Positions 34,601 to 63,889 of a stretch of DNA of 64,000 nt are shown here, in pieces. The stretch is taken from positions 17,214 to 81,213 of IMG/VR virus record IMGVR_UViG_3300035396_001032. One strand, written 5' to 3'. A program made the translations under genes and the position numbers. The notes beneath the pieces are model-generated. The model searched no databases. It saw only the letters and a list, made by a program, of their open reading frames with translations, and had not been told where the DNA came from. The stretch comes from a virus (lineage: Duplodnaviria > Caudoviricetes). The first letter of the stretch is position 1. Every line of letters starts with the position of its first letter.

Positions 34601-36021
34601 AGTTATTATCTGCAACAATTATTATGAAGAGAAGTGGTTTATTGGTTAGAAATTCAATATTTACTAAACAAAAATTCATGTACAAAAGGGGAGTAAATGT
34701 TTCTGATGTTACATATGTTACTCCACCACCAGACCCATATTATTATGGCGGTTCAACACCTATTGGTCTTGGTAATCTAACTGGTAGAGCAACTGCTCAG
34801 TATCTTGGTGATGATGGTAGTATGTTTGTAATTGCACAAGAAGCTGAGTTACCACCTATTGAATTATATGTTGAAACTAAAGCAGGTAGTGCTGGAATTG
34901 GTAGATTAAATAATATAGGAGGTAAAAATATCAACTATCACGATATAATTAATCAATATGGCGTACAGTATAGACAAGGAACGTCAGGTGCATGGATTCA
35001 ATATCCATTAATAAATGGTGCTCCATTAACTAATAATTATTCTCTTAGCATATCTGGTTTAACTGAAGACACTACTTATCAATATAGGGCAATCATTAAG
35101 TCAGATATTCTTAGTGCAACAGGTAATATATTATCGTTGAAAACATTATCATCTGCAGTAGTTTACCCAACACCTTCGGGATTAACCACACAGAATACAA
35201 GTGCAACATCAACATCACTTGTTGGTACTGGTGCGCATACAATTCAAGGATATGACCGCATAGATTGGTATGGTATGCAGTATAGTGCAACAACTTGTGC
35301 ATCTGCATTTAATGTGACTCCAAGTACGTTTAATGTTGGTAGTGGTGCTGCAACATGTAATGTAACGGTTGTTGGCGATGTTACAAATACGTTTGGCGTT
35401 ACAACATCATATCCTCTTGGTCAACCAACTGGATGGCTATTTCCAGTATTACCCGACCCGCCAACACCTGCAGGAATAATACAAACTGTTTCTGTGTGTG
35501 CTAATACTGGTGTTGCAAGGACTGGTTGTACGGTTTATACACCAACTGTTGGTACTGCAAAATGTGTTGTATTTAATCAAGCGAATGGTGTTCCAGCATC
35601 TAACGCAATTAATGTTTGTTGTATTGGTAGTTCAACAACTCCAAGTGATTCAGATATGTGTGGTAAATTATGTCCAACAACAACAATGATAAGTGGTCAA
35701 AATTATTATGCAACATTTAATTGGCGTATAACAAAAGCAGCATCAAGTATTATTGCAGGTGCTTGTGTTTGTATCGTATGTAATGGTACTTGCTTATATG
35801 GCTGCGCAATAGACACGAAACTCGCAAAAAATTTATCAGGAAACTGGAGTGGAATACCTGTGGATTATAACGATAATGTTTATTTATGTGCTTGTGCATG
35901 TAATGACAATCCTTCAGATAATGTATTGGGATGTATAACATTAGCATCAATAACAAATGGTGTTGGTACATATAGTATTGGTACACCAACATATGTAATT
36001 AGTACTGTGGGTAGTGCATAA
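31633..36021 (+). CDS. Large baseplate wedge/tail protein (gp7/P2 gpI-like core) with FN3-like and Cys-rich C-terminal modules
   Basis: LVKNLSRTFGW...ELWRRIINNTSYFWKSKGTRQAI resembles gpI/gp7-type wedge proteins; ISGLTEDTTYQYRA FN3-like strand; 18 Cys in the last about 240 aa. Confidence 0.7.
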   Translation: MAKVKVTNTNLNQNLNGTNFNDTPSSTIFSFGKFFVTSNFDGKTTIDYTNTLSSFVRPVTLETMGVTDTQSQILQTYSTNAVLNLDKSDLNTFVRYGSAYEFLRVSIQNIILAYPGSLYANTQKRQGGVQTFSGFTYDVVNNVSTFYVPTGCTVNTFGIVFNNGNENVPDNSELKNLNVSYSKYVISTSLEPDASYPVIGFTGNTINSSNNLKKNYLRFQVTGNPFAVYGTGNTGFLSFHIKPNNLIFEEYRALLNPYEKFIVSNRDGVNGFKFTLKDPTLLDDGTITYADATLLWNTSDGYNVDINTPSYQQFLKIALTIGAKYDKVKTDLIARFLTPASLKTYDYTEDGKITKLLRIYGSEFDQIREFIDSLVYINKVTYDKLNNVPDQLVKNLSRTFGWDYFSLVNEAELVESFLTIDSNERNLNEDILPAEIDVELWRRIINNTSYFWKSKGTRQAIKSMFLLIGIPEPFINITEYVYTVDGIINPNTVTLSQLDFPNASLPYDTEGYPVAPLESSSFYFQISGDTDGGQAYMNNFRNAGFNLSQTVDNKKSWMQTGSTTRTHYSTPQYYQEDSKLILNTKEVDIALDTAQGIEYDVYKYIQEDFKANSSGYTLSYSYVNISLGVGASQTTFPLPQKTQGDFEVRYNGILLNAPKTGTTTGVTYRADYSIDYVNNTFTLLGGIAINSGNRRDVIQATYVYSGATSQPISGITVQYVVTRVKPNITGTIIPLPSYPRGDVQVTINGIALTKGTPQFNADYILDPANTTGYSQIIVSNPDVIAFLAGNPEVQIAYVEVNGSNDINARSEIVRIDSFNSSKIYFNPSANKYVYKLNYKMNNASDVKLLIDGIALEPNMDYSLNVMNPYEIFLPKGLRYGTVISAYYLVGGNAAFAPVVGDSFGLGDISKLSFLEFLELVQRKMINARNRKTISDFKGGWYPTVLQIYEMYLQRANLPADDPLHSNGYTFENLYPFLSKYNAFFQRFVDQLLSATIIMKRSGLLVRNSIFTKQKFMYKRGVNVSDVTYVTPPPDPYYYGGSTPIGLGNLTGRATAQYLGDDGSMFVIAQEAELPPIELYVETKAGSAGIGRLNNIGGKNINYHDIINQYGVQYRQGTSGAWIQYPLINGAPLTNNYSLSISGLTEDTTYQYRAIIKSDILSATGNILSLKTLSSAVVYPTPSGLTTQNTSATSTSLVGTGAHTIQGYDRIDWYGMQYSATTCASAFNVTPSTFNVGSGAATCNVTVVGDVTNTFGVTTSYPLGQPTGWLFPVLPDPPTPAGIIQTVSVCANTGVARTGCTVYTPTVGTAKCVVFNQANGVPASNAINVCCIGSSTTPSDSDMCGKLCPTTTMISGQNYYATFNWRITKAASSIIAGACVCIVCNGTCLYGCAIDTKLAKNLSGNWSGIPVDYNDNVYLCACACNDNPSDNVLGCITLASITNGVGTYSIGTPTYVISTVGSA

Positions 36022-36027
36022 AAATTA

Positions 36028-36036
36028 GTATTTATA
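36028..36036 (+). promoter_or_regulatory. GTATTTAT phage promoter motif
   Basis: GTATTTATA 30 nt before ATG 36058. Confidence 0.65.
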
Positions 36037-36057
36037 TGAAAATAAAAGGTATTTAAT

Positions 36058-36579
36058 ATGACATGGTCAACTACAACACCCTTAAAGGCGGGTCCGCTTG
36101 GTAGTAATTCATATAATTTCACAATTACTGGATTAACTGAGGGTACAAATTATATTTATAGAGCATATTTTCTCGTGGATAGTGTGGAGTATTATGGAGA
36201 CATACTTACAGGAACAACATTATCTGCATCACTTGTAGTGCCAACAATGACTACAGGTATTGCTACGAACATACTTTCAGTTGATTTTTTTGTCACAGGC
36301 AATACTGTTGACAATAATGGTGGTGCACCTATCTTGGAATATGGTACGTTACATACACAAATTGGTGTGGCAGGTAGTCCTGCCCATATGACATATACCA
36401 ATCCTAATGTTAATATAGTCTCAACGCTTTCCAATATCTCGGTTGGTATTCCATATACTAATACCGTAACTGGTCTTGCTGAAGGTACATTGACCTATTA
36501 TCGTTCATTTGCAAGGAATGCTCTTGGTGTTGGGTACGGTAGTGTTAAAACTGCATTAACTGAAACAGGTGGAACGTAA
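36058..36579 (+). CDS. FN3/Ig-like domain virion protein
   Basis: ITGLTEGTNYIYRAY and VTGLAEGTLTYYRSFARN..GVGYG are FN3-type C-terminal strands. Confidence 0.7.
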   Translation: MTWSTTTPLKAGPLGSNSYNFTITGLTEGTNYIYRAYFLVDSVEYYGDILTGTTLSASLVVPTMTTGIATNILSVDFFVTGNTVDNNGGAPILEYGTLHTQIGVAGSPAHMTYTNPNVNIVSTLSNISVGIPYTNTVTGLAEGTLTYYRSFARNALGVGYGSVKTALTETGGT

Positions 36580-36591
36580 AAAAAATTACTC

Positions 36592-36600
36592 GTATTTATG
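36592..36600 (+). promoter_or_regulatory. GTATTTAT phage promoter motif
   Basis: GTATTTATG 24 nt before ATG 36616. Confidence 0.7.
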
Positions 36601-36615
36601 ATAAAGAATAAATAA

Positions 36616-37920
36616 ATGGCATTCATCGATAAAAGTGACCCAATTGTATTAAACATAAAATTAACTTCTAAAGGTAGGGAATTACTATCGAGAGGCACGT
36701 TAAATTTTAAGTATTATGCTCTTGGTGATAGTGAAATGAATTATGAATTAAATGCTGAATTAGAAGCAGCAGATGCTAACTATACTGCATTTAATGCGAA
36801 TATATTAAGACCTGTGGATAAGAATCCAAACATTATCTCATTTATTCCAAGAAATTTAAATGGTGACCCATATAATTTACTTTCAACAGTACCTGTAACT
36901 TCATATGTTGTTGAAAACTCGATTGAACCAATAGGTTTTTTTGCCAATAGTGGAACTACATTTATTACTGATAGTAATCATGTGAAACAACCTGATGCAA
37001 GAGTTCAAGTTAGTACAGTTACTGGTGGCTATAATTTAACATTAAAAAAAGCAAGTACATATGGTTCAAGTGGTGAAGAACCTAAAGCTGGAGACCTATT
37101 GTTTATTAGATGGACTCATGGAAGTAGTACGACTTCAAGCACATATGCAGTTAACAAGACTTATCCAACCCCGAATCTATTTTACAAAATTGTAAATATT
37201 AATGCTGGTGCATTAGCTAATGTAAATGGTGTTAGTGTTACTGTTGATAGGTTGCTACCTAATTTCACAGGAGTAGTTAGTACAGTATATGCTGCAGCAA
37301 TGATTTACTACAATCAAATTGATTTCAGTGGAAATACTGCATTTAATATGACATCTACTGAATATCTTGATGAAAGTGTAATCTCATTTTTACAAAACAG
37401 TCAATGTCCAACAATCGTATTTCCATTTTGGAATATGACAATTGTTCATACAGAAGAAATTGCTGGTGTACAAGCATCAAACTTGAAATTCACTCAATTT
37501 AAAAACAAAGCATTTGGTGGATTCGTATCATACATTCAAAATCAAGCACCTGCTTATAAAAGACTTGGAGTTATTCATTACACGAATTCAAGTCCTGCAA
37601 ACGTATATGCAGAAGGTTTTAATTTAAAAACACCTGTGCTTGATATACCAACAATAATGTATCACAGGTCAACTGGAAAAACATTAGGATTGAAATTGGT
37701 GGCAAAGGGTGCATTAAAATATTTAACTGGTGCAAAAAAATCATTAAATCTTAGGTATTATAACTTGTATGATATTAATGATTTATCACTAACATATCCA
37801 CTTGGCAAAGTATTTAATGATTTAAAAGTGTTTGTAATTGAAGACCAAGAACTATTATATGCAATGTCATATAAGTCAAATAGGTCTTGGACATTACCAA
37901 ATTACGCAATAAGTAAATAA
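36616..37920 (+). CDS. Putative baseplate/tail structural protein
   Basis: N-terminal VLNIKLTSKGRELL..G.LNFKYYALGDSE.NY resembles jumbo-myovirus baseplate-associated proteins (recollection, unverified). Confidence 0.55.
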   Translation: MAFIDKSDPIVLNIKLTSKGRELLSRGTLNFKYYALGDSEMNYELNAELEAADANYTAFNANILRPVDKNPNIISFIPRNLNGDPYNLLSTVPVTSYVVENSIEPIGFFANSGTTFITDSNHVKQPDARVQVSTVTGGYNLTLKKASTYGSSGEEPKAGDLLFIRWTHGSSTTSSTYAVNKTYPTPNLFYKIVNINAGALANVNGVSVTVDRLLPNFTGVVSTVYAAAMIYYNQIDFSGNTAFNMTSTEYLDESVISFLQNSQCPTIVFPFWNMTIVHTEEIAGVQASNLKFTQFKNKAFGGFVSYIQNQAPAYKRLGVIHYTNSSPANVYAEGFNLKTPVLDIPTIMYHRSTGKTLGLKLVAKGALKYLTGAKKSLNLRYYNLYDINDLSLTYPLGKVFNDLKVFVIEDQELLYAMSYKSNRSWTLPNYAISK

Positions 37921-37928
37921 ATATTAAA

Positions 37929-38630
37929 ATGAATTATACTGTTTTTACAACATATGCCTTAGTTCCAACTGGAAACACTGCTGGATATAAACAAGCAATA
38001 CATTGCAATTATATTAAAAGTGTTGAAATCGATACCGATAATCTATATATTCAAGAAATTAGTTTGAATTTCTCTAATAGTAGTGATTTTAAGTTTTTAA
38101 ATACAGGCATTGGTTCTACAGGATTTACTGTACATAGAATTTACATGTTGATTCAAACAGGTATTACTGCAACAAATCTTAAACCAGATGCTGCAAACTG
38201 GAAGGTTTATGATGTTACGAGTCAAATTACTGGATATGCGGGTGTGTTAACCCCTTCTGGATTAACAGGTGTGGTATTCAAAGCACCACTAAACCTTTAT
38301 GCAGGGAAATCTACATATGATTTATCGTATCTTAATTACCCATCAACAAGTCAAACCTCAGCATTAGCATTTGGTGATGAAACATATTTCTTTGGAAATG
38401 TGACAACTGATATTAAAGCAGATGTCTATACCACAGACTTATCGATTACATTATCATTAAACCAATTCAATTCAAGTGATAATTTAACTTGGACTGGTGG
38501 TAAGGTTTATGTAACAGAAGTTGGACTATATGATAGCAACAAAAACCTTGTTGGTATTGCCAAACTTAATGACCCTGTTCCCAAAGATTCTTCGATTTCC
38601 AGAACAATTGTATTCGCAATTGATTTTTAA
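37929..38630 (+). CDS. Tail-collar-fibre/baseplate-like protein
   Basis: C-terminal YVTEVGLYDSNKNLVGIAKL..PVPK, typical of tail-collar/fibre-attachment domains. Confidence 0.65.
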   Translation: MNYTVFTTYALVPTGNTAGYKQAIHCNYIKSVEIDTDNLYIQEISLNFSNSSDFKFLNTGIGSTGFTVHRIYMLIQTGITATNLKPDAANWKVYDVTSQITGYAGVLTPSGLTGVVFKAPLNLYAGKSTYDLSYLNYPSTSQTSALAFGDETYFFGNVTTDIKADVYTTDLSITLSLNQFNSSDNLTWTGGKVYVTEVGLYDSNKNLVGIAKLNDPVPKDSSISRTIVFAIDF

Positions 38631-38673
38631 TTAAAGAAAATCATAAAATTTTATATTTTTTTATAGTTTCTTA

Positions 38674-38682
38674 GTATTTATT
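38674..38682 (+). promoter_or_regulatory. GTATTTAT phage promoter motif
   Basis: GTATTTATT 35 nt before ATG 38709. Confidence 0.55.
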
Positions 38683-38708
38683 ATAAATTATGACAATAAT
38701 AATAATTT

Positions 38709-38936
38709 ATGATACATATGAAAGAATTACTTACACTTAGTGACACAAAGCCAAAATCAATAATAATTGAAGGCGACCTACACAATGCATTCAAGCTATT
38801 ATGTAAAGGAAAAAGTATGAAAATTGGTGGAGTTATTGAAGATTTAATCAAACTTTATCTCAGAGACCCCAAGAATGTTCAAAAAATGATTGATGAAATG
38901 AAAGACGAAAGAATAGTTTTTCAGCAGTTAAAATAA
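38709..38936 (+). CDS. Ribbon-helix-helix DNA-binding protein
   Basis: KSIIIEGDLHNAFKLLCKGKSMKIGGVIEDLIKLYL fits the RHH beta-alpha-alpha pattern. Confidence 0.7.
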   Translation: MIHMKELLTLSDTKPKSIIIEGDLHNAFKLLCKGKSMKIGGVIEDLIKLYLRDPKNVQKMIDEMKDERIVFQQLK

Positions 38937-38941
38937 TCAAT

Positions 38942-39553
38942 ATGGAAAAATATATCTGGTCATTAGACATAAGTACTACTAATATAGGTAGTGCTTTATG
39001 GGATAATAAGGGCAAACTTATTGAACTCAAGCATCTTGAGTTAAAAACTGACAAAAATACTCCTGTTGAGGACAGGGATATTCACAAGGCAGAAATTTTC
39101 AGGAAATACGTTGAAGATTATAAGGCACGCATTTTAAATGAACTCAATGGTGAAATTATTCACATTATTGTTGAAGAACCTCTGGGTGGCAGCAATAACG
39201 CAAATACTGTGTCATTACTATATGGTTTCAATGGTATTTGTAGGTATATATTATTTACAATCTTTGAAATATATCCCAAGAAAATTAGTGTATATGATAG
39301 TCGTAAGCTATTCTGTACTGAATTGGTTAAAATTTCTAAGGTAAAGGGTGAGTTAAAAGAAACACTTAGTTTCCCACCTGAATATCGTGATGAAAAAAAG
39401 TTGTATATCTGGAAAAAGGTTTGTAATTTAGAGCCGCAAATTGAATGGTTTTACAAGAAAGACAGTAAAGAACCAAAAGACATGTGTTTTGATATGTCAG
39501 ATAGTTATGCTGTTGGCTTTGCAGGACTTAAGCAATTGGGTATTATTAAATGA
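38942..39553 (+). CDS. RuvC-like Holliday junction resolvase
   Basis: IWSLDISTTNIG (Asp1), IIVEEP (Glu), DMSDSYAVG (D-x-x-D). Confidence 0.8.
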   Translation: MEKYIWSLDISTTNIGSALWDNKGKLIELKHLELKTDKNTPVEDRDIHKAEIFRKYVEDYKARILNELNGEIIHIIVEEPLGGSNNANTVSLLYGFNGICRYILFTIFEIYPKKISVYDSRKLFCTELVKISKVKGELKETLSFPPEYRDEKKLYIWKKVCNLEPQIEWFYKKDSKEPKDMCFDMSDSYAVGFAGLKQLGIIK

Positions 39554-39903
39554 GGAAACACAACTTAGTAACATCAACAAACCCACATGATAAGGTTAAA
39601 TATGTTTATTTAATACAGTCATTAGAAAATGGGTATTATAAAATAGGGGTATCGAAGCATCCCCAAAAAAGAAGAAGTGGATTACAAACAGGTAATCCAT
39701 CACCAATCAAAGTAATTGACACATATTCGTCAATGTTTGCACACCTAATTGAAAGAACCTTACAGAGAAGGTATGAATATCTTCGTAAAGAGGGTGAATG
39801 GTTTGATTTATCTCTCCAAGAGGAACTTTCATTCCATAAAAACTGCCAACAAATCGAAGAAAATCTAATTTTTTTGAAAAAAAGTGGTAATGTATTTATA
39901 TAA
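39550..39903 (+). CDS. T5orf172/MUG113-type GIY-YIG nuclease
   Basis: YVYLI...YYKIGVSKHPQKRRSGLQTGNP...IERTLQ...EGEWF. Confidence 0.85.
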   Translation: MRKHNLVTSTNPHDKVKYVYLIQSLENGYYKIGVSKHPQKRRSGLQTGNPSPIKVIDTYSSMFAHLIERTLQRRYEYLRKEGEWFDLSLQEELSFHKNCQQIEENLIFLKKSGNVFI

Positions 39904-39907
39904 ACCC

Positions 39908-39938
39908 TTGTGTTTTCAATATTTTTGTTATAGTTTTG
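39908..39938 (+). promoter_or_regulatory. Bacteroidota primary-sigma promoter (GTATTTATA also at 39892-39900)
   Basis: TTG (39908-39910)-N20-TAGTTTTG (39931-39938). Confidence 0.7.
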
Positions 39939-39977
39939 ACAAAAATTCAAATAATTCTATATAAATTATTTTCTAAT

Positions 39978-41414
39978 ATGAAAAGAGAACGAATTGAAAA
40001 AGCAGTAGAAGTTATCAATTATGCAATACAAAATCAAATATCGGTTAAGGAAGCGTCAGTCAAGTGTGGATTTGCTGACACCTATGTAAAAAACGTTAAA
40101 GCAATTGCTTATGACGAATATACGTCAGGAGTCCTTGATGATGAATTATTTGGCATATTTACTGAAGCATATGCCAGATATGAAAATAGAGGAATTTTAC
40201 GAGACGTAGAAACCAACGAAAAACCTAAAGACCTTCCTAAATCTGAAGGTGAACAAACAAAATTTGATGTAAAAGGAAATGAAGCTGAGATTGAGTGGAA
40301 AAGCGGTTCTAACTATCCTGCAGACCATATTAAAACTCTCGATGAATTACTTAAAATCTGTGATGTTGACACTGAAATCTGGGGTGTTAAAGACTATACA
40401 GTAAATAAATGGGATGTCACAGCCATTATTGATAAAACCCCAAAGACCTTCCAAAACTTCCAAGTTAAAGCACGTCTGGAAAAAAATGTTGTTGCCAGTG
40501 ATGCATTGTACATCGAGAAGATGTTCAAAAATATGGTGAAGAACTATGAACCACCAGTGCTTAATTGGACTAAAATACAAAACAGTTTTGATAATAACGA
40601 AAATAATCTCTTGGAGATTTCAATTTTTGACCTACATATTGGAAAACTTGCTTGGGGTGGAGAAACTGGTGAAAACTACGATACTAAAATTGCACGTGAA
40701 AGATTTCTATCTTCAATCGAAAAACTGTTGAAAAACGCAAGTGGATTCCCATATTCAAGAATACTCTTCCCAATTGGTAATGATTTCTTCAACAGTGACA
40801 CAATTTTTAACACGACAACTAAAGGAACACAACAAGACGAAGACTTACGTTGGCAGAAAACGTTTAATGTAGGTGTAAGACTTCTTGTTGATGCAATTAA
40901 TATGTTGAAACAAACGGGAGTGCCTGTGGACGTGGTGGTTATCCCCGGGAATCACGACTTCGAACGTAGCTACTACATGGGTAAATATCTCGAAGCATGG
41001 TTCAACAATGACCCCTCAGTTTGGATAAACAATGGTGCTTCTCCAAGAAAATATTACCGTTTTGGTAACGTATTACTTGGTTTAACGCATGGTAGTGAAG
41101 AAAAAGAAAGTAGCTTACCAATGTTAATGGCAACAGACATTGAGTCCAAACCATTGTGGAGTGAAACCAAGTTCCACGAATGGCACTTAGGACATATTCA
41201 TAGAAAACGTAATGTGAAGTATGAAATTAACAGGTCGAGACCATTGAATGAAGACTTAGGTGTTACAGTAAGATATTTGTCAAGTCTTACTGGAACAGAA
41301 GAATGGCATCATAAAAAAGGATTTGTTGGTTGTACTAAAGCAGCAGATGCTTTTATCTGGAATTACGAGTTTGGGTTAATCGCTCACTTAAATACAAATT
41401 TAATAATTGAATAA
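39978..41414 (+). CDS. Calcineurin-like metallophosphoesterase with N-terminal HTH-like region
   Basis: FDLHIGK, GNDFFNSD, PGNHD, LTHG, GHIH. The track's TTG start overlaps the promoter, so ATG 39978 is preferred. Confidence 0.85.
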   Translation: MKRERIEKAVEVINYAIQNQISVKEASVKCGFADTYVKNVKAIAYDEYTSGVLDDELFGIFTEAYARYENRGILRDVETNEKPKDLPKSEGEQTKFDVKGNEAEIEWKSGSNYPADHIKTLDELLKICDVDTEIWGVKDYTVNKWDVTAIIDKTPKTFQNFQVKARLEKNVVASDALYIEKMFKNMVKNYEPPVLNWTKIQNSFDNNENNLLEISIFDLHIGKLAWGGETGENYDTKIARERFLSSIEKLLKNASGFPYSRILFPIGNDFFNSDTIFNTTTKGTQQDEDLRWQKTFNVGVRLLVDAINMLKQTGVPVDVVVIPGNHDFERSYYMGKYLEAWFNNDPSVWINNGASPRKYYRFGNVLLGLTHGSEEKESSLPMLMATDIESKPLWSETKFHEWHLGHIHRKRNVKYEINRSRPLNEDLGVTVRYLSSLTGTEEWHHKKGFVGCTKAADAFIWNYEFGLIAHLNTNLIIE

Positions 41415-41417
41415 TAT

Positions 41418-45752: not shown

Positions 45753-48700
45753 ATGATAAAAAAGATTGCACACCTTGCAGATATACACATCCGTAAAACA
45801 CCCACACGCAATGCCGAATATGAAATTGTATTCAAAAACTTAATAGAATCCCTCACCAATGAAAAACCAGATAGAATAGTAATTGATGGTGACTTGGTTC
45901 ACGACTACCTTGACCTTCAGGGTGAACAACTAATACTTGCTTCAAATTTTCTCAACGAATTAAGTATGATTGCACCAGTGAGGGTGACCAGAGGTAATCA
46001 TGATTGCCGTAAGAAGAATCTGAATCGTGTTGATAGTGTTAAAGCTATTGTTGAAACCCTACATAATCCAAGAGTAATTTATTATGAATCAACAGGTTTC
46101 TTCGATGACGATAATGTGACTTGGGCAGTATGGCATCATGGGGAAAAAAATAATAATCCTTGGAAGTCTAAGGATGGTAAAAATATTCTTGCAAATCCTA
46201 ATCATTATTATGCCATTGACTTATTTCATGACCCTATCACTGGTTGTAAATCTACCACTGGTTTTGAAATGAAAAGTAAGTCATATTACAAGATTTCTGA
46301 CTTCAAGGGAACTCTTTCGATGTTCGGTGATATTCATCGCATGCAATTTTTAGATAAAGCTCAAACCAAAGCATATTGTGGCTCATTAATCGCACAAGAT
46401 TTTTCAGAAGGTGATGATAACTTTCATGGTTATCTTATGTGGGATATTCAGACCAAGGTTGCTGAAATGATACCAATAAAGAATGATTATTCCTTCAAGA
46501 ATGTATTACTCACACCATATACAGATTTTGACGATTTAGATTTCGAAATAGATAGTCCTACTAACCACATGAAAGTTCGATTTATCTGGGGCACTTTACC
46601 ACAAACACGCACAAAGGATAATGAAAGAAAGGCTATTGCGTACATTAAATCCAAACACCAGAATTTAACCATTTCTCACAAGAATGAGTTTATTGAAAAC
46701 GAAAAGATTGTTGTTAATGAAAGCATTACATTGCAAAATGTAACTGATAAGGGAGTGCAACATGAGATTTTTAAAGAGTTTTTAATTAAGATAGGTGTCG
46801 ATGAACACGTAATTGCCGATGTTATTGCACTTGACGAAGAAATCTTAACTGAAATTGATGTCACTGATGACCTGAGCATTGAATGGAACGTTATTAAGTT
46901 TGGTGGTAAGAATTTCATGTCATATGGCGAACTTGAAATCGATTGGCGTGATAAAGATGGGTTGTTTCAGATTACTGGTGTTAATACAGCAGGTAAGACA
47001 ACCATTATGAAAATTATAAGCTACATATTGTTTGGTAAGACATTGGAAACCGAATCACGTATGAAGTTCGGTGATATGCGTTTTGTCAATAATAGAAATG
47101 GTGCAAGTTATTGTGAAGCATATCTTGTACTGGAAGCTAATGGTGAATATTTTGGAATCAAGAAAAAAACTGAAATTGTTAAAAATAGGGGTGGTGAAAT
47201 CACAAGTGCCCCAACAACATTGAGTTATTACGTACTGGCAACACCTGATGATGAAATGAATGTTGATACTGCAATTGAAACACTTGATGGAGACCGTAGA
47301 GCAAAAACTCAGAAGAAAATTGAATCAATTATTGGCACATACGATAATTTCATGAGAATCGTTATGACTACCAGTGATACATTGAATCGTATTCTTTCAA
47401 ATGACATGGCAGTTTTTATTGATTCGTTATTATACGATAGTGGTCTGGATATTTTTGACAAGAAACTCGAAGGCTGGAAGGTTGTTAATAAACGTGCAAA
47501 TGAGAAGACAAGAATTACTTGTAATGTCGAATTAACTAATCTCAATAATGCTACACTAACTGAAGATATTCGTGTATTAGAGGGTGAGATTACTAAAATT
47601 GAAAACGAAACCTTACCAAAGATTCAGGAAAGTATTAAAACTGGTAGGTCATATCTGGAAACTATTACTAAGAAACTTTATAAAATTGACTCAGATATCT
47701 ACAATTTAGACGTTGATGTTGCACGAGAGGATATAAGTAACAACAAAAAGAATATCGTTGAAATAAAGGCACAGAAAATGGTTCTAATGCAAAGTATTCT
47801 ACCATTGAAGGAAACTTATGACGAAAAACGATTAACTGAACTCAATGGAAAGAAAGATGCACATAAAACCAACGAATTTAAATTAAAACTGGAAGTTAAG
47901 GACTATGAAAAAAAGATTAGTGACCTTGACCATGAAATCGAAATCATTAATGGAAAAATTTTTAATTTAAAAAATGATGGTGCTAAGTTAAAACAAGAAA
48001 TTGCTAATCTAAAAAGTAGTAAGACTTGCAGTCAGTGCGGACAGTTAATTGATAAACAAGAACATATAGACCACATCAATAAGACTGTTAAGGAAAAAGA
48101 AGCTGAAATGTTTAAGATTGCTGATGAAATAAAAAAACAGCAAGCAATTATAGACAGCACACATAAAGTGGCAATTGAGGCTAATCGTGTCGAAATCGAC
48201 ACAATTAAAAAGAAAATCGAAGCACAATCACTTGAAATGGAAGAAATTCTAAAGGAAATTGGGATAATCACCAATGATAAGAACGATGTTGATAAGCGTA
48301 AGGAACTTCAAGCAGAATTAGACCAGATTCCAACTAAAATTCAGAATGAAGAACTGAAAATCGGCATCTTGGAACAGAAGATAACCAGTCATGAGAATAG
48401 TTTACTTCAGATTGAGGAAAATCAGAAGATTGAAAAGGGTATTGCTGCAGCTAAATTAAAAATTGCTGCGCTTGAAGACGAAGAAAGTGACGAAAAAGAA
48501 AACGTTTACATTAGAAAGACAAATATCGGTGATAAACAACTTAGAATCAAGTATAATGAATCAATAATTGCTGAGTTTAAGGCACAGGAGTATCGAGATA
48601 CTGTTATGAACCTATATAAGAAATGCGTTCACAGGGATGGTATTCCAAGGCAAATGTTGAGTAACTACATTATACCTAAAATCAATTTAACTTTAGAGAA

Positions 48701-57062: not shown

Positions 57063-57064
57063 AT

Positions 57065-57490: not shown

Positions 57491-57496
57491 AATTCC

Positions 57497-57527: not shown

Positions 57528-57566
57528 CAATCACAAAAATAATATTATTTAAAATTTAAAACACAA

Positions 57567-57854
57567 ATGGCAAATTTAAAACTTGACCTCATTAACAAAT
57601 TAAACAACGACAAGTATTATGAAGAACTTGAGTTAGTACGTCTCGCACAAGACCCAAACACAAATTACAAAGAAAAAATTGATGCAATGTCATTTCAACT
57701 CGAAAGTCTTGCAATTCTTAATGCACAGTTGGGTTTAGTTAATCAGTATTTTCAAGAACCTGCTGCACAAGCAGAACAAGTTCCAGTTAATGCTGCACCA
57801 GTACAAAATGCACCTGCAGGACAGGTTCATCAGGGTCAGACTCACGGAGAATAA
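57567..57854 (+). CDS. Hypothetical protein
   Basis: 95 aa, helical hairpin plus a Q/P/A-rich tail. Confidence 0.7.
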   Translation: MANLKLDLINKLNNDKYYEELELVRLAQDPNTNYKEKIDAMSFQLESLAILNAQLGLVNQYFQEPAAQAEQVPVNAAPVQNAPAGQVHQGQTHGE

Positions 57855-57857
57855 TTC

Positions 57858-58055
57858 ATGATAGTCTTAATTGAAATATATCAGTTTCTTTTTATAGCCT
57901 CTATAATATTTATGATTCACATTCTTGGTGACTTAATCATAAAAATGTATGGAAGATTTAAATTAAAAGAAGAAACCAGATTTGTTTTAAGTATAACTGA
58001 AAAAATAATGCTATGGGTATCCATAGCAATATTTTTTTCATATATAATACAATAA
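57858..58055 (+). CDS. Small two-TM membrane protein
   Basis: 65 aa with two hydrophobic helices. Confidence 0.65.
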   Translation: MIVLIEIYQFLFIASIIFMIHILGDLIIKMYGRFKLKEETRFVLSITEKIMLWVSIAIFFSYIIQ

Positions 58056-58571
58056 ATGAAAACAATTGAATTAGCATTACAACCCATTACAGGTTTTCTC
58101 GTATCAATTACAAGAAATACTCAAAATGGCTGGTATGAAATTGAAATAGGTTTGCCAAGCACTTGGTATTATGACGAGAACGATGAAATTGGTTGTGAAG
58201 TCATAAGTGAAATTAAGACCGAAAATGCTTCAGGTAAAATAATTAAAATATTTCCCAAAAACGAAGAAATTGTTATTGACGATTTAGTTGCGTTTGTTCA
58301 AGTTATCATCGACACCAACAAAAGAATCGCTGATAAGGAAAAACAATTTACTGATAGAATGCAGGAAATGAAAGGTGTTTTGGAAAAAGAAGCTAAAAAG
58401 TTCTATGAGGAACTTGATGAATTGAAGATTAACTCAATCAAAACCCTAAACGATAATTTTGTCAAGGTCTTACGTCCAGATGCTGAAAAGAAGACCAGAA
58501 AACCAAGAACTCCCAGAGTTGTTACGGGCACTACCGACACACAAACACAAAACGTTGAAGAAGTAAAATAA
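58056..58571 (+). CDS. Hypothetical protein
   Basis: 171-aa ORF in the operon. Confidence 0.72.
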   Translation: MKTIELALQPITGFLVSITRNTQNGWYEIEIGLPSTWYYDENDEIGCEVISEIKTENASGKIIKIFPKNEEIVIDDLVAFVQVIIDTNKRIADKEKQFTDRMQEMKGVLEKEAKKFYEELDELKINSIKTLNDNFVKVLRPDAEKKTRKPRTPRVVTGTTDTQTQNVEEVK

Positions 58572-58576
58572 TCGTT

Positions 58577-58930
58577 ATGGCTATTGACGAAAAGATATTG
58601 TCTATCGATGCCGATGATGATAACAAAGATTATCAGGCATTTGAGGAATATATTCAAGACGATACTGAAAGAAAGAAAAATCGTACTGCTGCGGTTATTG
58701 ATGAATGGGGTGAACAACTATTAAAAGAAATTGATAGAAAGAAGAAGCTGGAGAAGCTAAGAATTGAAAAACTTATACCCTATATTATTAGACACTCAGA
58801 TGGTAAGTATGATGCAGATGAATTGATAACTTATACGTTTAAAGACGTGCAGGATATCTACGATGAACTAAAAAAAGAAAATCAACCATTTTTTTCAAAA
58901 TTTTTTCACTTTCTATTCAATATTGATTGA
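58577..58930 (+). CDS. Hypothetical protein
   Basis: 117-aa acidic/basic ORF in the operon. Confidence 0.7.
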   Translation: MAIDEKILSIDADDDNKDYQAFEEYIQDDTERKKNRTAAVIDEWGEQLLKEIDRKKKLEKLRIEKLIPYIIRHSDGKYDADELITYTFKDVQDIYDELKKENQPFFSKFFHFLFNID

Positions 58931-58938
58931 TTATTAAC

Positions 58939-58946
58939 TATATTTG
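58939..58946 (+). promoter_or_regulatory. Bacteroidota -7 element
   Basis: TATATTTG 39 nt before ATG 58978; no correctly spaced TTG found. Confidence 0.5.
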
Positions 58947-58977
58947 CGTAGTATAAACAATTAAATCAACATATCTT

Positions 58978-59751
58978 ATGGCACTATTTGATGACGTTTT
59001 TAATGCAAAATCAATCTACGGAACACTTTTCTTTAATGTAAAGTCAGTTCTAATTTATCCTACACTCGCAGACCTCGAAAGTAAAAACAAGCCATTGTTT
59101 GACCGTTGGCAACAACTAAGAATGACTAAATATTTTCGAGTTGTAATGTCTCCAGATGAACTGTATCAGGAATATGCACCAAACTTTCCTGAGTATACAA
59201 GAATCGTTGCAATAACATATGCAACACTGTATAGCGAAAATGGTACGTTGAAACGTTTCTTCAAAAAAATCGTGAATGAAGACGAATATATTGTCTTGGC
59301 AACATTCATGGATGTATTATATGAACTATCAACTGCAGGTGTTCAATCAAATCCACAGTATTTCCCAATCTTATGTGGACATGATATTATTGGTCACGAC
59401 ATTCCACTCTTAATTAAAAGATTCCTTGCTAATAAGGAGAAGTTTGGTGCAGAGAAGCAATTGCCTTACATGCTTAAAAGATGTCTGAATATCAAGCCTT
59501 GGGAACCGGGCGTAGTTGATATCTTAAACGTTTGGAAATTCAATGGATTTGAAAACGTTTCATTAATGCTTATTGCTGATTATATGGGTCTTAAAAAGAC
59601 TGTTGATTTACTTTCACTTCCAGAATTGTCAAAATATTATTGGAATAATGTTGGTGAAAAACCAGTTGAGACTTTGGAACATATTTCTTTACAATCTGCC
59701 ACACAAACAAATCTCGTTATTCAATTGATGAATGAACTAAGGCATCTGTAA
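58978..59751 (+). CDS. PolB-exo-related DEDD 3'-5' exonuclease fold with degenerate active site
   Basis: PEYTRIVAITYA...ILCGHDIIGHDIPLLIKR...KPWE..VVD...VSLMLIADYMGL matches the family layout; ExoI reads FNVKS and ExoIII reads ISLQS. Confidence 0.65.
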   Translation: MALFDDVFNAKSIYGTLFFNVKSVLIYPTLADLESKNKPLFDRWQQLRMTKYFRVVMSPDELYQEYAPNFPEYTRIVAITYATLYSENGTLKRFFKKIVNEDEYIVLATFMDVLYELSTAGVQSNPQYFPILCGHDIIGHDIPLLIKRFLANKEKFGAEKQLPYMLKRCLNIKPWEPGVVDILNVWKFNGFENVSLMLIADYMGLKKTVDLLSLPELSKYYWNNVGEKPVETLEHISLQSATQTNLVIQLMNELRHL

Positions 59752-59780
59752 GATTTTCTGTTTTTATATTTTTACTACAT

Positions 59781-59819
59781 AAATAAAGTAAATCCGAGTG
59801 ATTTACTTTATTTTTTTTT
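59781..59819 (+). terminator. Intrinsic terminator
   Basis: AAATAAAGTAAATC-cgagt-GATTTACTTTATTT plus T-run. Confidence 0.8.
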
Positions 59820-59828
59820 GTATTTATA
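59820..59828 (+). promoter_or_regulatory. GTATTTAT phage promoter motif
   Basis: GTATTTATA 24 nt before ATG 59844, abutting the terminator T-run. Confidence 0.7.
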
Positions 59829-59843
59829 TGAAAACGGAAAAAT

Positions 59844-62800
59844 ATGAATTTAGATTTTCTTAGTTCGATAAACGTAAAACGTATTACTGCAACATTCATT
59901 TCAGGTGCAACTATTTCTGGAACTGGATTGGTTTCAAGTGCAACCACAGCAACTAATGCATTATGTTTAGGTGGTAATCTTGCAAGTACTTACTCAAGTA
60001 AGGTAAGTGGTGCTGTTGCAGATGATATTGCAACATTTGCTTCTGGTGGAAATCCCCAAGATAGTGGAAAACAATTTATAATAACAGTAAATACTTCTTC
60101 AACTGCGACTGACACTAAAGTTCCAACTGAATTAGCAGTTAGAACTGCAATTAATCAAGCAGTTAGTGCTGCGATTATATTACAAGGTGATTGGAATGCC
60201 AATACAAATAGTCCTAATTTAACTTCAAGCACAATGACCACTGGTTATGCTTGGAGAGTGTCAACAAGTGGTCATACTAATTTAAGTGGTGAAACTACAT
60301 GGTATGTAGGCGATTTGGCAGTTAAATCTGCAACTGGTTGGATAAGAATTGCAAGTACCGATATTTCAGCTATTTGGGGAAACATTAGTGGAACACTTAG
60401 TAATCAAACTGATTTACAAAGTGCTTTAAATGCAAAGACTTCATGTTTAGGTACTGTAACAGGAACTGGGACTGCAAATGAATTGTCATATTGGACATCT
60501 GCAAGTGCACTGGGAACACTCGCTGTTGCATCATATCCTTCTTTAACAGAAATCTCCTATGTAAAGGGTGTTACAAGTGCTATACAAACACAATTAAATG
60601 ACAAATCACCTATTGCCAGTCCTACTTTTACAGGCACGGTTACATTACCCATCACCTGTTTAACAGATAATTCATATTTTCTTGGTTCACCAACTTATGG
60701 TTATAGATTTAATGATAGTACTTCTACATACAATAACTTCATCATTAAGGAAAATGGTGATACATGTACAAGAGGTAATGCATACATACCAAACGGAATA
60801 TCAATAGGAAGTGATGGTACATATACTCTAATAAAAACCCCTGCTGCTGGTGGTGCTATTCAGTTTGGTGCTAATAGTGCTACTTGGGATAGAAATTTGC
60901 ATCTTGGATTTGTAGATGGTTCGGGTGCATTTGGTGCAAATCTTAGTATTATTTATGAAACAGGTAATGTAGGTGTTGGTGGAGACCCTAATGGAAACGC
61001 AAAATTACACGTTTATGGTGATTCAATATATTTAGGGGCATTGTCAAATTATGGTTATATGACATCTGTTGAAAATACATTTAACACAAGAAGACTTGAT
61101 ATTGGTACTACTTGGGGATTTGATGCAAAAATCCCAGCAATATCAATTCTTAATGGTAGTGTAGGTATTGGCGGTGTTACTAATCCATCTACAAAGTTAG
61201 AAGTTGCTGGAGCAATTCGTAGTTCAAGTTCTTCCGACCAAATACAAGTTCAATCTTATGACCAAACTACTAAACAATGGCGTTTAGGAACAGCCATAGG
61301 AAGTAGTGGAACTAATCGTAATTTTACAATATGGGAAAGCGACCTTGGAAATGCTTTAACTATTACTCAATCTAATGGTAATGCACAATTTGCTGGTGTT
61401 GTTACAGCACCAAGTTTGACTACTAACAGTGGAAGAATAGATGCAAATACTAATGGTGGTAATGGTGGTTTTATTAGTTCAGGTAATTATCAAGGTACTG
61501 GTTCTGCTGCATATTTTCCTACTGGTCTTTATTCGCTTGGTTCTAATTGGTTATATGGTACTACAAATTTTGATGGTACTATTGGTTCTAGTGTTGATAC
61601 TTGGGATATAGATAGTACTACTGGTATTGGTAGATTTGATGGTAATGTTTCAGCAGTAAAATTCATAGAGAATGGTACTTGTTTGGCTTCAAAATATTTA
61701 GGTATTAGTGCAACTGCTACATATGCGCAGCATACTACTTGTGTATGTATTTGCGATGATGGTGTAAGGAGTGCCAATACTTTTCTACCAACCAATAATC
61801 CACATGCAATGCAGATGAATTTTGTAAGTTCAAATACTGTTGGTACTGGTGGTAGTTATGCTGGTTTGATGACTATAAATCCATATGACGGTACTTCTAT
61901 AAGTGGTGGTGATTCAAGTTATCAATTAGCATTTGGTGGCACTGCAATGAATGGTGGTGTACCTATGTTGAGAATAAGAAATGGGATTAATAGCACTTGG
62001 AATAGTTTTTATAATATATTTACTTCAGCAAATAATATTGTTTTTAGTAGCACCGCCCATAGATGTATTTATGTGGAAGATACTACAACGGCTGCAAGTA
62101 CTTGTAATTTAATGATAAAATCATCAACACTAACTATGAATACTACTGGAGTAGTTACTGGTGGAAATACTTATGTATGTGCAGGTGGTGGATTTAACTC
62201 AAGTAGTGGTGGTGGTACTGGTTGTGGTGGGCAGCTTTATATTGTCGGTGGTTGTGGTACAATCGGTACTGGTAGTTATCAAGGTGGACATGTAACCATT
62301 TGTGGTGGTACTGGTGCTGCAAGTACTGGTGGTGGTGCTGGTGGAAATATATATCTTTGTGGTGGTACTGGTAGTACCGTTGGTTGTGTTGCATTATATC
62401 ACAGTACTGTACAAAGATTGATTACTAATTCTGGTGGTGTTTGTGTAATAGGTGCATTAAATGCAAGTACAATTGTTTATGGAACAACTTGTGTTTGTTC
62501 ACCAATTGTTTGTGCAGTAGGTACAGGTGCAAGAATGTTGGCAAGTACTGGATGTGGTAGTGCTGTGGATTGGATAGCAACTTCTGATTGCCGTATAAAG
62601 AAAAATATAACACCGATTATTAGTGCACTTTCAAAAGTAGATTCTCTCTGCGGTGTTTGTTATGAATTATGTGAAGATGGTACACCTGATATGGGACTTA
62701 TAGCGCAAGACGTTTTATGTGTTGAACCACGACTTGTAACCAGAGGTGAAGTACCTGAAGAATATAAAAAATATGGTATTGAAGACCAAATGTTGGGACT

Positions 62801-62906
62801 TAAATACGATAAGTTTGTAGGTTTATTAGTTGAAGCAATTAAAGAATTAAAAGAACAAAATATATGTCTTCAAAATCAAATAAATGAATTAAATAATAAT
62901 AAATAA
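59844..62906 (+). CDS. Tail fibre/spike with C-terminal peptidase S74 intramolecular chaperone
   Basis: G/S/T-rich body with VGIGGVTNPSTKLEVAG-type repeats; C-terminal TSDCRIKKNI...GLIAQDV...KYDKFVGLLVEAIKEL coiled coil. Confidence 0.88.
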   Translation: MNLDFLSSINVKRITATFISGATISGTGLVSSATTATNALCLGGNLASTYSSKVSGAVADDIATFASGGNPQDSGKQFIITVNTSSTATDTKVPTELAVRTAINQAVSAAIILQGDWNANTNSPNLTSSTMTTGYAWRVSTSGHTNLSGETTWYVGDLAVKSATGWIRIASTDISAIWGNISGTLSNQTDLQSALNAKTSCLGTVTGTGTANELSYWTSASALGTLAVASYPSLTEISYVKGVTSAIQTQLNDKSPIASPTFTGTVTLPITCLTDNSYFLGSPTYGYRFNDSTSTYNNFIIKENGDTCTRGNAYIPNGISIGSDGTYTLIKTPAAGGAIQFGANSATWDRNLHLGFVDGSGAFGANLSIIYETGNVGVGGDPNGNAKLHVYGDSIYLGALSNYGYMTSVENTFNTRRLDIGTTWGFDAKIPAISILNGSVGIGGVTNPSTKLEVAGAIRSSSSSDQIQVQSYDQTTKQWRLGTAIGSSGTNRNFTIWESDLGNALTITQSNGNAQFAGVVTAPSLTTNSGRIDANTNGGNGGFISSGNYQGTGSAAYFPTGLYSLGSNWLYGTTNFDGTIGSSVDTWDIDSTTGIGRFDGNVSAVKFIENGTCLASKYLGISATATYAQHTTCVCICDDGVRSANTFLPTNNPHAMQMNFVSSNTVGTGGSYAGLMTINPYDGTSISGGDSSYQLAFGGTAMNGGVPMLRIRNGINSTWNSFYNIFTSANNIVFSSTAHRCIYVEDTTTAASTCNLMIKSSTLTMNTTGVVTGGNTYVCAGGGFNSSSGGGTGCGGQLYIVGGCGTIGTGSYQGGHVTICGGTGAASTGGGAGGNIYLCGGTGSTVGCVALYHSTVQRLITNSGGVCVIGALNASTIVYGTTCVCSPIVCAVGTGARMLASTGCGSAVDWIATSDCRIKKNITPIISALSKVDSLCGVCYELCEDGTPDMGLIAQDVLCVEPRLVTRGEVPEEYKKYGIEDQMLGLKYDKFVGLLVEAIKELKEQNICLQNQINELNNNK

Positions 62907-62907
62907 A

Positions 62908-63240
62908 ATGGCTAAAGTAGATTTAATAACAATATCAGGGTTAACCGCAAGTGACGGTAGTTTTATAGCAAGTGGTGCAACATTAAAGTTTGACAGTAAT
63001 TTTTTTGCTGCATCAACACACATTAAAATATCACCTAAACTCTATAGAAGTAGAGAATTATTTGAAAATGGATATCGAGAAATCTCCATGTCTGAACAAG
63101 TACTTCCTGTTGATTTTTTAATTACGTTACCAGAAGTACAATATTATCAATTAACCCCTCTTCAATTATATGAAGAAGTTAAGACATATTTAAATAATTT
63201 GTTTGGTGTCGAAATGTTTAGAGTATTAATAACTGAATAA
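62908..63240 (+). CDS. Hypothetical fibre-associated protein
   Basis: 110-aa ORF coupled downstream of the fibre. Confidence 0.65.
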   Translation: MAKVDLITISGLTASDGSFIASGATLKFDSNFFAASTHIKISPKLYRSRELFENGYREISMSEQVLPVDFLITLPEVQYYQLTPLQLYEEVKTYLNNLFGVEMFRVLITE

Positions 63241-63256
63241 ATAAAACAAACTAATT

Positions 63257-63889
63257 ATGGCAATGCCAGTAAGTGGATGTATCGCTTTACGTACATGCGT
63301 TACAGGAATAAATTGTTCGAGTATATCATGTGCTGTTAATGGCAGTGCAGCAGGTACTTGTTGTCTTAGTGCTTTGAGTGTAACTGCAGGTAAAGCAGCA
63401 CCTCATGGTATGAGAGAATTTTATGGATATACATCTGCTGCTGGTAATGCAGTTTCAATTACAAATGTTTCAAGTACAGGTACTAATGGTGTTTCTACTG
63501 CGGTATGTAATTGCAGTTGCTTAAGCTATAGTTTAACAAGAACTGTTGGTCAATGTTATTGTCCAGCATTTGATTACAACATAATTAAACTTGCATCACA
63601 GGGAATAGCAAATAAGTGTGCTTTTGTTTGTATCCTATGTAATGGAACATGTATTTATGGATGTGGTTATAATGGAATCGGTACTTTTAATGTAAGCGGT
63701 ACGTTTGCTGCAAGATGTGTTGACTATAATGATACAATTAATATTATTACATGCGCTTCAATAAATGTAGATGACACCGCAGCAGCTAATGCATCAATAA
63801 CTATTTCATCAATAACTGCAGGTGTGGGCACATATTGTATTGGAACTCCATCATCTATATATAGATATACTAGTGGCATATTAGTGTAA
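63257..63889 (+). CDS. Cys-rich virion (tail tip-associated) protein
   Basis: 19 Cys in 210 aa; N-terminal MAMPVSG..I...AAPHGMREFYGY resembles small tail-associated phage proteins; C-terminal domain similar to the end of 31633..36021. Confidence 0.65.
   Translation: MAMPVSGCIALRTCVTGINCSSISCAVNGSAAGTCCLSALSVTAGKAAPHGMREFYGYTSAAGNAVSITNVSSTGTNGVSTAVCNCSCLSYSLTRTVGQCYCPAFDYNIIKLASQGIANKCAFVCILCNGTCIYGCGYNGIGTFNVSGTFAARCVDYNDTINIITCASINVDDTAAANASITISSITAGVGTYCIGTPSSIYRYTSGILV

Follow-up and report, generated by a model that had tools for sequence, protein, structure and literature searches.

Phage proteins fold in a reducing cytoplasm, and to our knowledge the disulfides or reactive cysteines so far described in phage tails are limited to a few defined residues, those of Pam3, gp39, and P22. 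Disulfides between the tail fibre and the wedge of cyanophage Pam3 were confirmed in virions, and on reduction with dithiothreitol (DTT) the fibres came off and the tail contracted (PMC9942802); cytoplasm-folded proteins can therefore end up disulfide-bonded in the particle. In a siphovirus, the tail tube protein gp39 forms inter-ring disulfides that add thermal stability, the cysteines being present in only ~14% of the gp39 family and Cys-free homologues (gp13) assembling normally (PMC13576161), and the cysteine annulus in the C-terminal auto-chaperone region of the trimeric P22 tailspike contains reactive cysteines that form transient disulfides in folding (PMC3357383). In a search of the full-text literature, no account was found of fibre tips loaded with cysteine in bulk or of S74 chaperones rich in Cys. 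Here we analyzed a stretch of 64,000 nucleotides (the window; positions 17214–81213 of the 81,213-bp IMG/VR record IMGVR_UViG_3300035396_001032; CheckV completeness, 27%), in which a baseplate-associated protein of 1462 residues, a tail fibre of 1020 residues with a C-terminal S74 chaperone, and a small protein of 210 residues are heavily loaded with cysteine. The Cys-rich stretches are best explained as swappable, outward-facing parts of the tail that contact the host, comprising fibre shafts, tips, the small tip protein, and the C-terminus of the baseplate protein.

In the 1462-residue protein (31633..36021), 18 of the 19 cysteines are located at residues 1222–1434, and the only one in the first 1221 residues is at residue 152. 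The fibre (59844..62906) has 27 cysteines, 23 of which are at residues 613–1008, and the 210-residue protein (63257..63889) has 19, corresponding to 9.05% of its residues. The other 69 open reading frames (ORFs) of at least 80 residues in the entire 81,213-bp record give a background of 0.74% (174 Cys in 23,399 residues), over which the enrichment is roughly 10-fold, with binomial tails of 6e-13 (18 of 241 residues), 1.6e-13 (23 of 408), and 4e-15 (19 of 210). The three ORFs and the counts given in the initial annotation of the window were thus exact on recount and far beyond chance, and the strings quoted there are all present in the fibre (TCVCIC, residues 632–637; LCGVCYELC, 935–943; DVLCVE, 956–961; and NICLQ, 1006–1010). 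The loading, real in these three proteins, is nevertheless not limited to them: the part of the record upstream of the window (G000/L008) encodes three more Cys-rich fibre-like ORFs, at record positions 330–2246 (13 Cys), 7316–8695 (15 Cys), and 8697–10505 (25 Cys), the last having glycine-rich repeats and a second S74-like tail that also contains Cys (18.9 bits, under the Pfam cut-off of 22). Two of the three have N-I-A-I-G-x-x-A-L repeats, presumably resembling the YadA head. The fibre block also contains two adjacent genes for NHL-repeat β-propeller proteins (L008 2246–3751 and 3751–5448; PF01436, E 1e-34 to 1e-36) with 1 and 3 Cys.

The gene for the 1462-residue protein is situated just downstream of gp25-like and gp6-like baseplate wedge genes (26323–28582, + strand, Pfam/PHROG), the products of which have one Cys each. 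The conserved and almost Cys-free N-terminal part (residues 1–1050; 31633..34782, + strand) has at least 296 homologues, and the statistics were taken from the 120 of them that were listed (67–84% identical, on contigs of up to 372 kb). In these orthologues, residues 1–1050 contain 75 Cys in 126,000 residues (0.06%; 0–4 per protein) and the variable remainder 1163 Cys in 51,312 residues (2.27%). The former value is far under the 0.74% background, suggesting that cysteine is actively avoided in the conserved part. Virion core proteins of the clade are almost Cys-free, and the onset of Cys is within the variable C-terminal part, past residues 1–1050. The rise, which had been called abrupt, is indeed sharp, but it coincides with the switch from the conserved to the swappable C-terminal part. 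In the window protein, the Cys-rich part spans residues 1222–1462 with 18 Cys (35296..36021, + strand); its last ~115 residues (about 35659–35997, + strand) form a β-sandwich tip module shared with the 210-residue protein, as detected by BLASTP, and a Pfam search of residues 1222–1336 and of the ORF cut at the window end gave no match.

The last 160 residues of the 120 orthologues fall into 17 BLAST clusters, eight of which are Cys-rich (79 of the 120 proteins; medians, 6–18 Cys) and nine Cys-poor (41 of the 120; medians, 0–2 Cys). The window tip belongs to the largest cluster, comprising 35 of the 120. Since both kinds of tip are mounted on the conserved residues 1–1050, the protein is regarded as one scaffold with interchangeable tips. 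Among the 120, the tips span from 0 to ~11% Cys, and about two thirds of those examined, belonging to several BLAST-unrelated families, are at roughly 4–11%. A uniform Cys content in all orthologues with canonical buried disulfides, named at the outset as the pattern that would speak against an unusual loading, is thus not what was found; the tips differ over this range and show no preference for even counts.

The 210-residue protein consists of an N-terminal adaptor domain (residues 1–58, 6 Cys; 63257..63430, + strand), defined by family alignments A1–A3, and an all-β sandwich tip domain (residues 62–207, 13 Cys; 63440..63877, + strand), predicted by AlphaFold2 (AF2). Its residues 86–201 align with the C-terminus of the 1462-residue protein in BLASTP (3e-21; 43% identity over 118 residues), a relation also detected in a search of its own genome (1.3e-18). 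Accordingly, the three Cys-rich cases originally listed are all real, but two of them, the 1462-residue tip and the 210-residue protein, are copies of one paralogous module. The family of the 210-residue protein (141 representatives at 50% identity) has a common architecture, in which the N-terminal ~58 residues form a conserved domain and the C-terminal domain after it varies. It has no Pfam, PHROG, or solved-structure (PDB sequence) match, the genome bins contained no relative of the adaptor domain, and the protein atlas returned only unnamed viral clusters with scores below 0.8. The AF2 model from an 89-sequence alignment (predicted local distance difference test (pLDDT), 92.1; predicted template modelling score (pTM), 0.77) shows a small N-terminal domain and a ten-strand β-sandwich; the homotrimer prediction scored 0.00. 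Fold matches of the tip domain were generic sandwiches only (Foldseek template modelling (TM) score, ~0.3; VIA-align best Z, 7.9, inside the stated noise range of the tool; BFVD TM, ≤0.36), including carbohydrate-binding modules, TNF-like domains, the C-terminus of lambda gpJ, and fibre C-termini of uncultured phages. A wrong-frame artefact was ruled out by the 141 tip homologues, the pLDDT of 92, and 44 close homologues of the fibre tail. A diversity-generating retroelement was also rejected, as the tip DNA repeats only as paralogous copies (D6/D11) without a template repeat; no reverse transcriptase family was found among the 54 window and 10 upstream ORFs of the record, which is 27% complete.

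Members of this family contain 0–15% Cys, and across the family the tip domain is composed of 11.0% Ser, 10.7% Thr, and 9.9% Cys, the last being the third commonest residue. Several Cys-free members differ in their C-terminal domain, which contains W-x-x-P and Y-x-Y-R-V motifs and which we take to be fibronectin-III-like. Cys-free members have Ser, Ala, Arg, Gln, or Glu at the positions of Cys8, Cys14, Cys20, and Cys25 of the window protein, and in the tip family as a whole the residues standing in place of the window protein's cysteines are mostly Ser, Thr, Ala, Tyr, Val, and Asn. Some Cys-poor members (P0131, P0132, P0136, P0139, P0147, and L009 6246–7322) have a signal-peptide-like start ending in A-Q before the conserved domain, which is odd for a phage tail part.

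The order of Cys-rich S74 fibre, optional 108-residue ORF, and tip-protein gene is found in 11 related loci (L003–L007, L010, L011, and L013–L016) in a locus scan that used alignments A1 and A3, A2 being too diverse. Judged from this gene order only, the 210-residue protein would be attached to the fibre tip. The Cys percentage of the tip protein also tracks the highest Cys percentage among its neighbours in 24 loci (Spearman, 0.69; p 1.7e-4): members at 5–10.5% Cys adjoin fibres with 31–63 Cys, and members at ≤2% adjoin Cys-poor genes. In the window, a Cys-free ORF of 110 residues (62908..63240, + strand) lies between the fibre and tip-protein genes; it is conserved in relatives, with homologous 108-residue ORFs at the same position in L003 and L006, matches no Pfam or PHROG family, and may be a fibre assembly or linker protein.

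The fibre is divided into a Cys-poor proximal part matching tail-fibre PHROGs (residues 1–612, 4 Cys; 59844..61679), a Cys-rich distal shaft (residues 613–913, 17 Cys; 61680..62582), and an S74 intramolecular chaperone module (residues 914–1020, 6 Cys; 62583..62906), all on the + strand. The distal shaft has glycine-rich repeats with the recurring pattern h-x-h-C-G-G, and the repeat family D4 has a spacing of 180–186 nt. Residues 770–1019 are matched by phrog_18186 and phrog_5668, and residues 914–965 by Peptidase_S74 (PF13884; E 2.4e-7; 31.4 bits versus a cut-off of 22). The AF2 monomer of the last 353 residues had a pLDDT of 61, too low for use, and PDB sequence searches gave no informative match, a chain of 6F45 appearing only as a weak match to the fibre. 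The cleavage motif S-D-x-R-x-K, in which Ser and Lys presumably form the catalytic dyad, is present as T-S-D-C-R-I-K-K (Ser914 and Lys919) and was found in 43 of 44 clade members. The cysteines of the window module are placed in SD-C-R, L-C-G-V-C-Y-E-L-C, L-C-V-E, and I-C-L-Q.

The 44 close homologues of the last 141 fibre residues (46–79% identical) are all in proteins with 1.8–8.3% Cys, and one more distant homologue has none. In the 43 with the cleavage motif located, the S74 tails have 3–8 Cys per ~110 residues, recurring in most of them behind S-D, at both Cys positions of L-C-G-V-C, in the L-C that comes next, and close to the C-terminal helix. Control S74 tails from bacterial and archaeal genome bins contain 4 Cys in 7065 residues (61 of 64 without Cys), and those of 77 viral ORFs contain 11 Cys in 7478 residues, six of them in one close relative (L114); the enrichment in the clade is thus at least 30-fold over the 141 controls. 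At the positions of the window S74 cysteines, the controls have I/A/L/R, R/Q/K/N, T/Y/S/H, and K/N/R/W. These comparisons bear out the view that the loading reaches into the chaperone, with 6 Cys in a module that is nearly Cys-free in the controls, and the proposal that Cys stands in for the usual polar residues is correct for the S74 part, in which the controls are largely polar or charged. The description of the loading as distal only does not apply to the homologous fibres, which have Cys in both halves, and it is therefore a trait of this mosaic fibre and not of the clade.

As a genome-wide control, we used the complete relative G006 (348,923 bp; CheckV completeness, 100%), in which the 340 ORFs of at least 100 residues contain 1.40% Cys. 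Sixteen ORFs have at least 9 Cys in some 150-residue window, and half of these are part of the fibre cluster or lie in or next to the baseplate protein, with two matching tail-fibre PHROGs and six no family. Of the 20 Cys of the G006 baseplate orthologue, 17 are within its final 150 residues, and this orthologue is adjoined by a relative of the 210-residue protein (E 3e-18); a 916-residue ORF with 62 Cys is also among the eight. The others are seven HNH or treble-clef nucleases, endonuclease VII, or TnpB-like transposase, and a 113-residue ORF of unknown kind. In a second complete relative (G008), the loading is much weaker, with fibres at ~2% Cys, and the trait is therefore not uniform across the clade. 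At least five HNH/treble-clef homing-endonuclease-like genes and a TnpB/IS605 OrfB-like gene were noticed in G006 (L274–L292), examples being 65126–66268, 81013–81915, 144619–145722, 47332–48228, and 336991–338139.

The spacing of cysteines was analyzed for 82 sequences of the tip family (1169 Cys) and 44 fibres (996 Cys). In the tip family, pairs at i+2 are enriched (189 versus 117 expected; z 7.5), as are those at i+4, and pairs at i+1, i+3, and i+5 are fewer than expected (z −4 to −5). The fibres show depletion at i+1 (9 versus 61.5 expected) and i+3 (21 versus 62 expected), and enrichment at i+2, i+4, i+7, and i+11. Thus, CC and CxxC are rarer than expected (z −4 to −7), and the enrichment of CxC belongs to an i, i+2, i+4 periodicity along strands, whereas the Zn-finger nucleases of G006, serving as a positive control, contain 22 CxxC versus 3.2 expected. 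Such i, i+2 spacing together with CC/CxxC depletion indicates a pattern on the same face of β-strands, opposite to that of chelating motifs. The ±1 neighbours of Cys are hydrophobic at a fraction of 0.41–0.46 versus a background of 0.27–0.31, and the ±2 neighbours are enriched in Cys, Thr, Ser, and Gly; therefore, at the family level, the cysteines are placed on the strand face that otherwise bears small polar residues. These features fit selected arrays of surface-face thiols on exposed tail parts. As to their role, the initial annotation listed several possibilities and not a single claim, namely disulfides formed after lysis, binding of metal or mineral, adhesion through thiols, and modification sites.

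Thiols on sheet faces might alternatively hold Zn, Fe, Cu, or metal-sulfide, either at trimer-axis sites or for adhesion to cells coated with mineral in a sulfidic mat. Fibre-axis metal sites are known, as is an Fe–S cluster in the lambda tail-tip protein gpL. The Cys density of 5–11% is like that of metal-binding proteins, and the four N-terminal residues (Cys8, Cys14, Cys20, and Cys25) have been gained together, with Cys8, Cys14, and Cys25 co-occurring in the family (phi 0.54–0.74). Odd Cys counts are no obstacle to metal binding, and all four well-matching sequencing runs are labelled microbial mat metagenome (four studies; 43–97% of sampled words present), a label that covers these runs only, the orthologues deriving from many other data sets. 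However, metal-chelating motifs, which would go with a role in metal binding as initially suggested, are depleted while the nucleases of the same genome type show the reverse, no fixed ligand set extends beyond about five alignment columns, and the same N-terminal domain is kept by Cys-free family members. Metal or mineral binding is thus considered unlikely.

The cysteines are also well retained. In pairwise comparisons of the tip domain, the retention of Cys is 0.41, the highest of all residues, with Ser and Thr at 0.21–0.23, and in the fibres Cys has 0.49 versus 0.28; neutral drift is therefore disfavoured. Under drift, Cys would have no specific function and would be tolerated in place of Ser, Thr, Tyr, or Gly by receptor-binding cassettes that evolve rapidly, favoured by codon proximity and abundant sulfur. 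Although this would agree with Cys columns swapping mostly with Ser, Thr, Ala, and Tyr, with variable positions and random parity, and with Cys-free tips working on the same baseplate protein, it is very unlikely in view of a retention about twice that of Ser or Thr, the ~10-fold enrichment over the record and that of at least 30-fold in the S74 tails, and the recurrence of the loading in 8 BLAST-unrelated tip clusters next to a conserved part at 0.06%.

A signal-peptide-like N-terminus is present in none of the Cys-rich proteins (N-terminal hydrophobicity, ≤1.43 versus ~2.7 in family members with signal peptides). Export to the periplasm was thereby ruled out, and the proteins are considered to fold in the cytoplasm, where, as originally pointed out, such a Cys load is unusual. 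It is plausible, if somewhat short of probable, and likelier than any of the other readings, that the thiol-rich sheet faces are cross-linked by disulfides after lysis. In this mechanism, the thiols of the proteins would be free during folding and trimerisation in the reducing cytoplasm, and after lysis the rows of thiols on the sheet faces would oxidise to a partly promiscuous network of intra- and interchain disulfides, which would stiffen and protect the exposed fibres. Fixed positions and even counts would be unneeded, because each Cys would have several possible partners. The cysteines of the S74 chaperone would act earlier, before cleavage, perhaps by holding the three chains in register or shielding the fibre thiols during folding, a role proposed for the cysteine annulus of the P22 tailspike. 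Post-lysis cross-linking would explain the restriction of Cys to exposed modules, the variable positions and odd counts, the Cys-poor core, and the working Cys-free alternatives.

Several observations weigh against cross-linking of this kind or the placement on which it relies. Cysteines conserved in the S74 module, which is presumably discarded, could not serve the mature virion, and sulfide in a microbial mat could keep the thiols reduced. For the window protein alone, the face assignment is ambiguous, with 5 Cys on the more hydrophobic face versus 7 on the other. Parity is close to random (57 even versus 50 odd for whole proteins, and 43 versus 39 for tip domains), only about five columns (Cys20, Cys88, Cys100, Cys128, and Cys136) have Cys in >60% of the sequences, most positions being variable, and apart from the N-terminal trio only one pair of tip-domain columns co-varies past the Bonferroni threshold. 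Neither DsbA nor glutaredoxin was detected in five records of 7–34% completeness, and the locus correlation has an effective n below 24 because several loci are near-duplicates. A search for an Erv1-type sulfhydryl oxidase in both record sets gave no match, its control matching nowhere either; a thioredoxin (~120 residues) is present in three of five large relatives. A canonical disulfide-rich extracellular domain is also not what the data describe, as a preference for even counts, a conserved framework, and an export signal are all absent.

Instead of being locked for good, the cysteines might stay partly reduced and gate fibre deployment or host binding, or bind the host by thiol–disulfide exchange. 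Microbial mats have steep redox gradients, and the mat label of the habitat is in line with such a switch. So are the location of Cys on the non-hydrophobic strand face at the family level and the strain-level turnover (G51C, C100R, and S206C, from matching-run contigs at a low depth of ~2 and a 99%-identical database protein), which indicates ongoing gain and loss of Cys. The DTT response of Pam3, in which fibres are released and the tail contracts (PMC9942802), is a further point in its favour. The switch leaves the cysteines of the presumably discarded chaperone unexplained, and the wedge proteins here are Cys-poor, unlike the Pam3 wedge; the switch is accordingly rather doubtful. In a more elaborate form, which we regard as quite improbable, the fibres, in mats alternating between oxic and sulfidic states, would be locked by disulfides when oxidised and unlocked by ambient sulfide or host-surface thiols, so that redox sensing gates deployment, binding, or tail firing, and the Cys-bearing S74 chaperone would set the initial reduced and registered state.

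Finally, the cysteines could be acceptor sites for modification, by S-glycosylation, lipidation, or thioether links to Ser/Thr. The joint richness of the tip domain in Ser, Thr, and Cys would suit this role, and the window contains a glycosyltransferase-like ORF (22428–23807; phrog_7162) and, within the baseplate gene block, a DUF6734 ORF. Yet neither a lanthipeptide-type, a radical-SAM, nor an S-glycosyltransferase family was detected among the 54 window and 10 upstream ORFs, and in the related loci that were inspected the Cys-rich genes have no enzyme gene linked to them. The proposed connection of the Cys loading with the glycosyltransferase-like gene of the window therefore finds no support, and modification appears highly improbable.

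With respect to its origin, the window has a GC content of ~33%, with every large ORF on the + strand, and encodes a family-B DNA polymerase, an SNF2 helicase, an Mre11/Rad50-like fusion, a sigma factor, and amidases (Pfam/PHROG). This gene content, including the gp25-like and gp6-like wedge, identifies it as a fragment of a giant contractile-tailed phage, which is a member of a widespread uncultured clade with genomes of ~320–350 kb. The wedge protein shares 26–28% identity with its counterparts in Flavobacterium and Microcystis phages, as does the polymerase ~25–30% with those of Salinibacter and Nostoc phages; judged by these identities, cultured phages are distant relatives only, and the hosts may be Bacteroidota or Cyanobacteria. 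The collection of cultured phages contained no match for the fibre DNA, the 210-residue tip protein, or the 1462-residue baseplate protein. The window SNF2 helicase (4739–6550, 603 residues) is without an intein, and a relative in L003 (6091–10083, 1330 residues) has an intein and LAGLIDADG domains. Near-identical contig pieces were found in all four microbial mat runs, one of which may be the sample of origin, and there were no RNA data among the data sets matching this genome. In all four runs, the contig depth rises 4- to 60-fold over a ~40-nt stretch of glycine codons in the fibre gene (62290–62359); many unrelated contigs end at this stretch, which is therefore taken as a common low-complexity GGT-rich word that other organisms have as well.

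A promoter-like motif, GTATTTATA, is located at 31608..31616 (+ strand), 17 nt upstream of the start codon at 31633, and at 59820..59828 (+ strand; motif family D12), preceding the fibre gene, with further copies in the window including those at 26300–26308 and 36028–36036. It has 15 matches in the window versus 1.9 expected, 14 of the 15 being on the + strand, and they are mostly placed 15–30 nt before start codons, including those of baseplate and fibre genes. The motif is probably a late or middle promoter element of this phage.

Altogether, a large uncultured clade of giant phages, with at least 296 homologues of the baseplate protein, appears to employ Cys in bulk, as a building material, in several host-contact modules that are unrelated to one another. 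Should cross-linking take place after release, it would represent a general route to harden receptor-binding proteins made in a reducing cytoplasm, relevant to the engineering of stable fibres and to predicting the persistence of phages in harsh habitats; should the cysteines bind metal or sense redox state, they would add a new level at which host recognition is controlled. A natural experiment is provided by the Cys-rich and Cys-free tips that share one conserved scaffold.

The long-tail-fibre tip of T2/S16 carries the adhesin gp38, a small protein encoded beside the fibre gene with a polyglycine-II sandwich. The 210-residue protein resembles it in being the product of a small fibre-adjacent gene and in combining a conserved, attachment-like N-terminal domain with a variable C-terminal domain; the latter, however, is predicted to be a strand-rich β-sandwich, unlike the polyglycine-II lattice, and no gp38 chain is among the listed fold matches, kinship with gp38 being conceivable all the same. 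The S74 module resembles chaperones of the endosialidase/T5 type (PF13884) in its Pfam match, Ser-x4-Lys motif, and C-terminal helix, but ordinary S74 tails are essentially Cys-free, whereas those of this clade have their 3–8 Cys at normally charged or polar positions. For its conserved cysteines, the P22 annulus is the nearest precedent, although the P22 domain is not of the S74 type and is not cleaved off, and the native P22 tailspike is described as free of disulfides (PMC3357383). Pam3 is similar in having a contractile tail with functional Cys in its outer parts, and it uses a few defined residues, fibre Cys28 and two Cys-rich wedge loops (PMC9942802). Here, the wedge ORFs with one Cys each and fibre residues 1–612 with four do not have the features of a Pam3-type attachment of fibre to wedge, and cysteines at 5–11% and at variable positions are found in the shafts, tips, and chaperone. 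The gp39 tube protein has two fixed Cys per monomer at the ring interface, compared with dozens per chain in several unrelated folds here; nevertheless, its lineage-restricted gain of Cys (PMC13576161) parallels the occurrence of Cys-rich and Cys-free tips on one baseplate protein.

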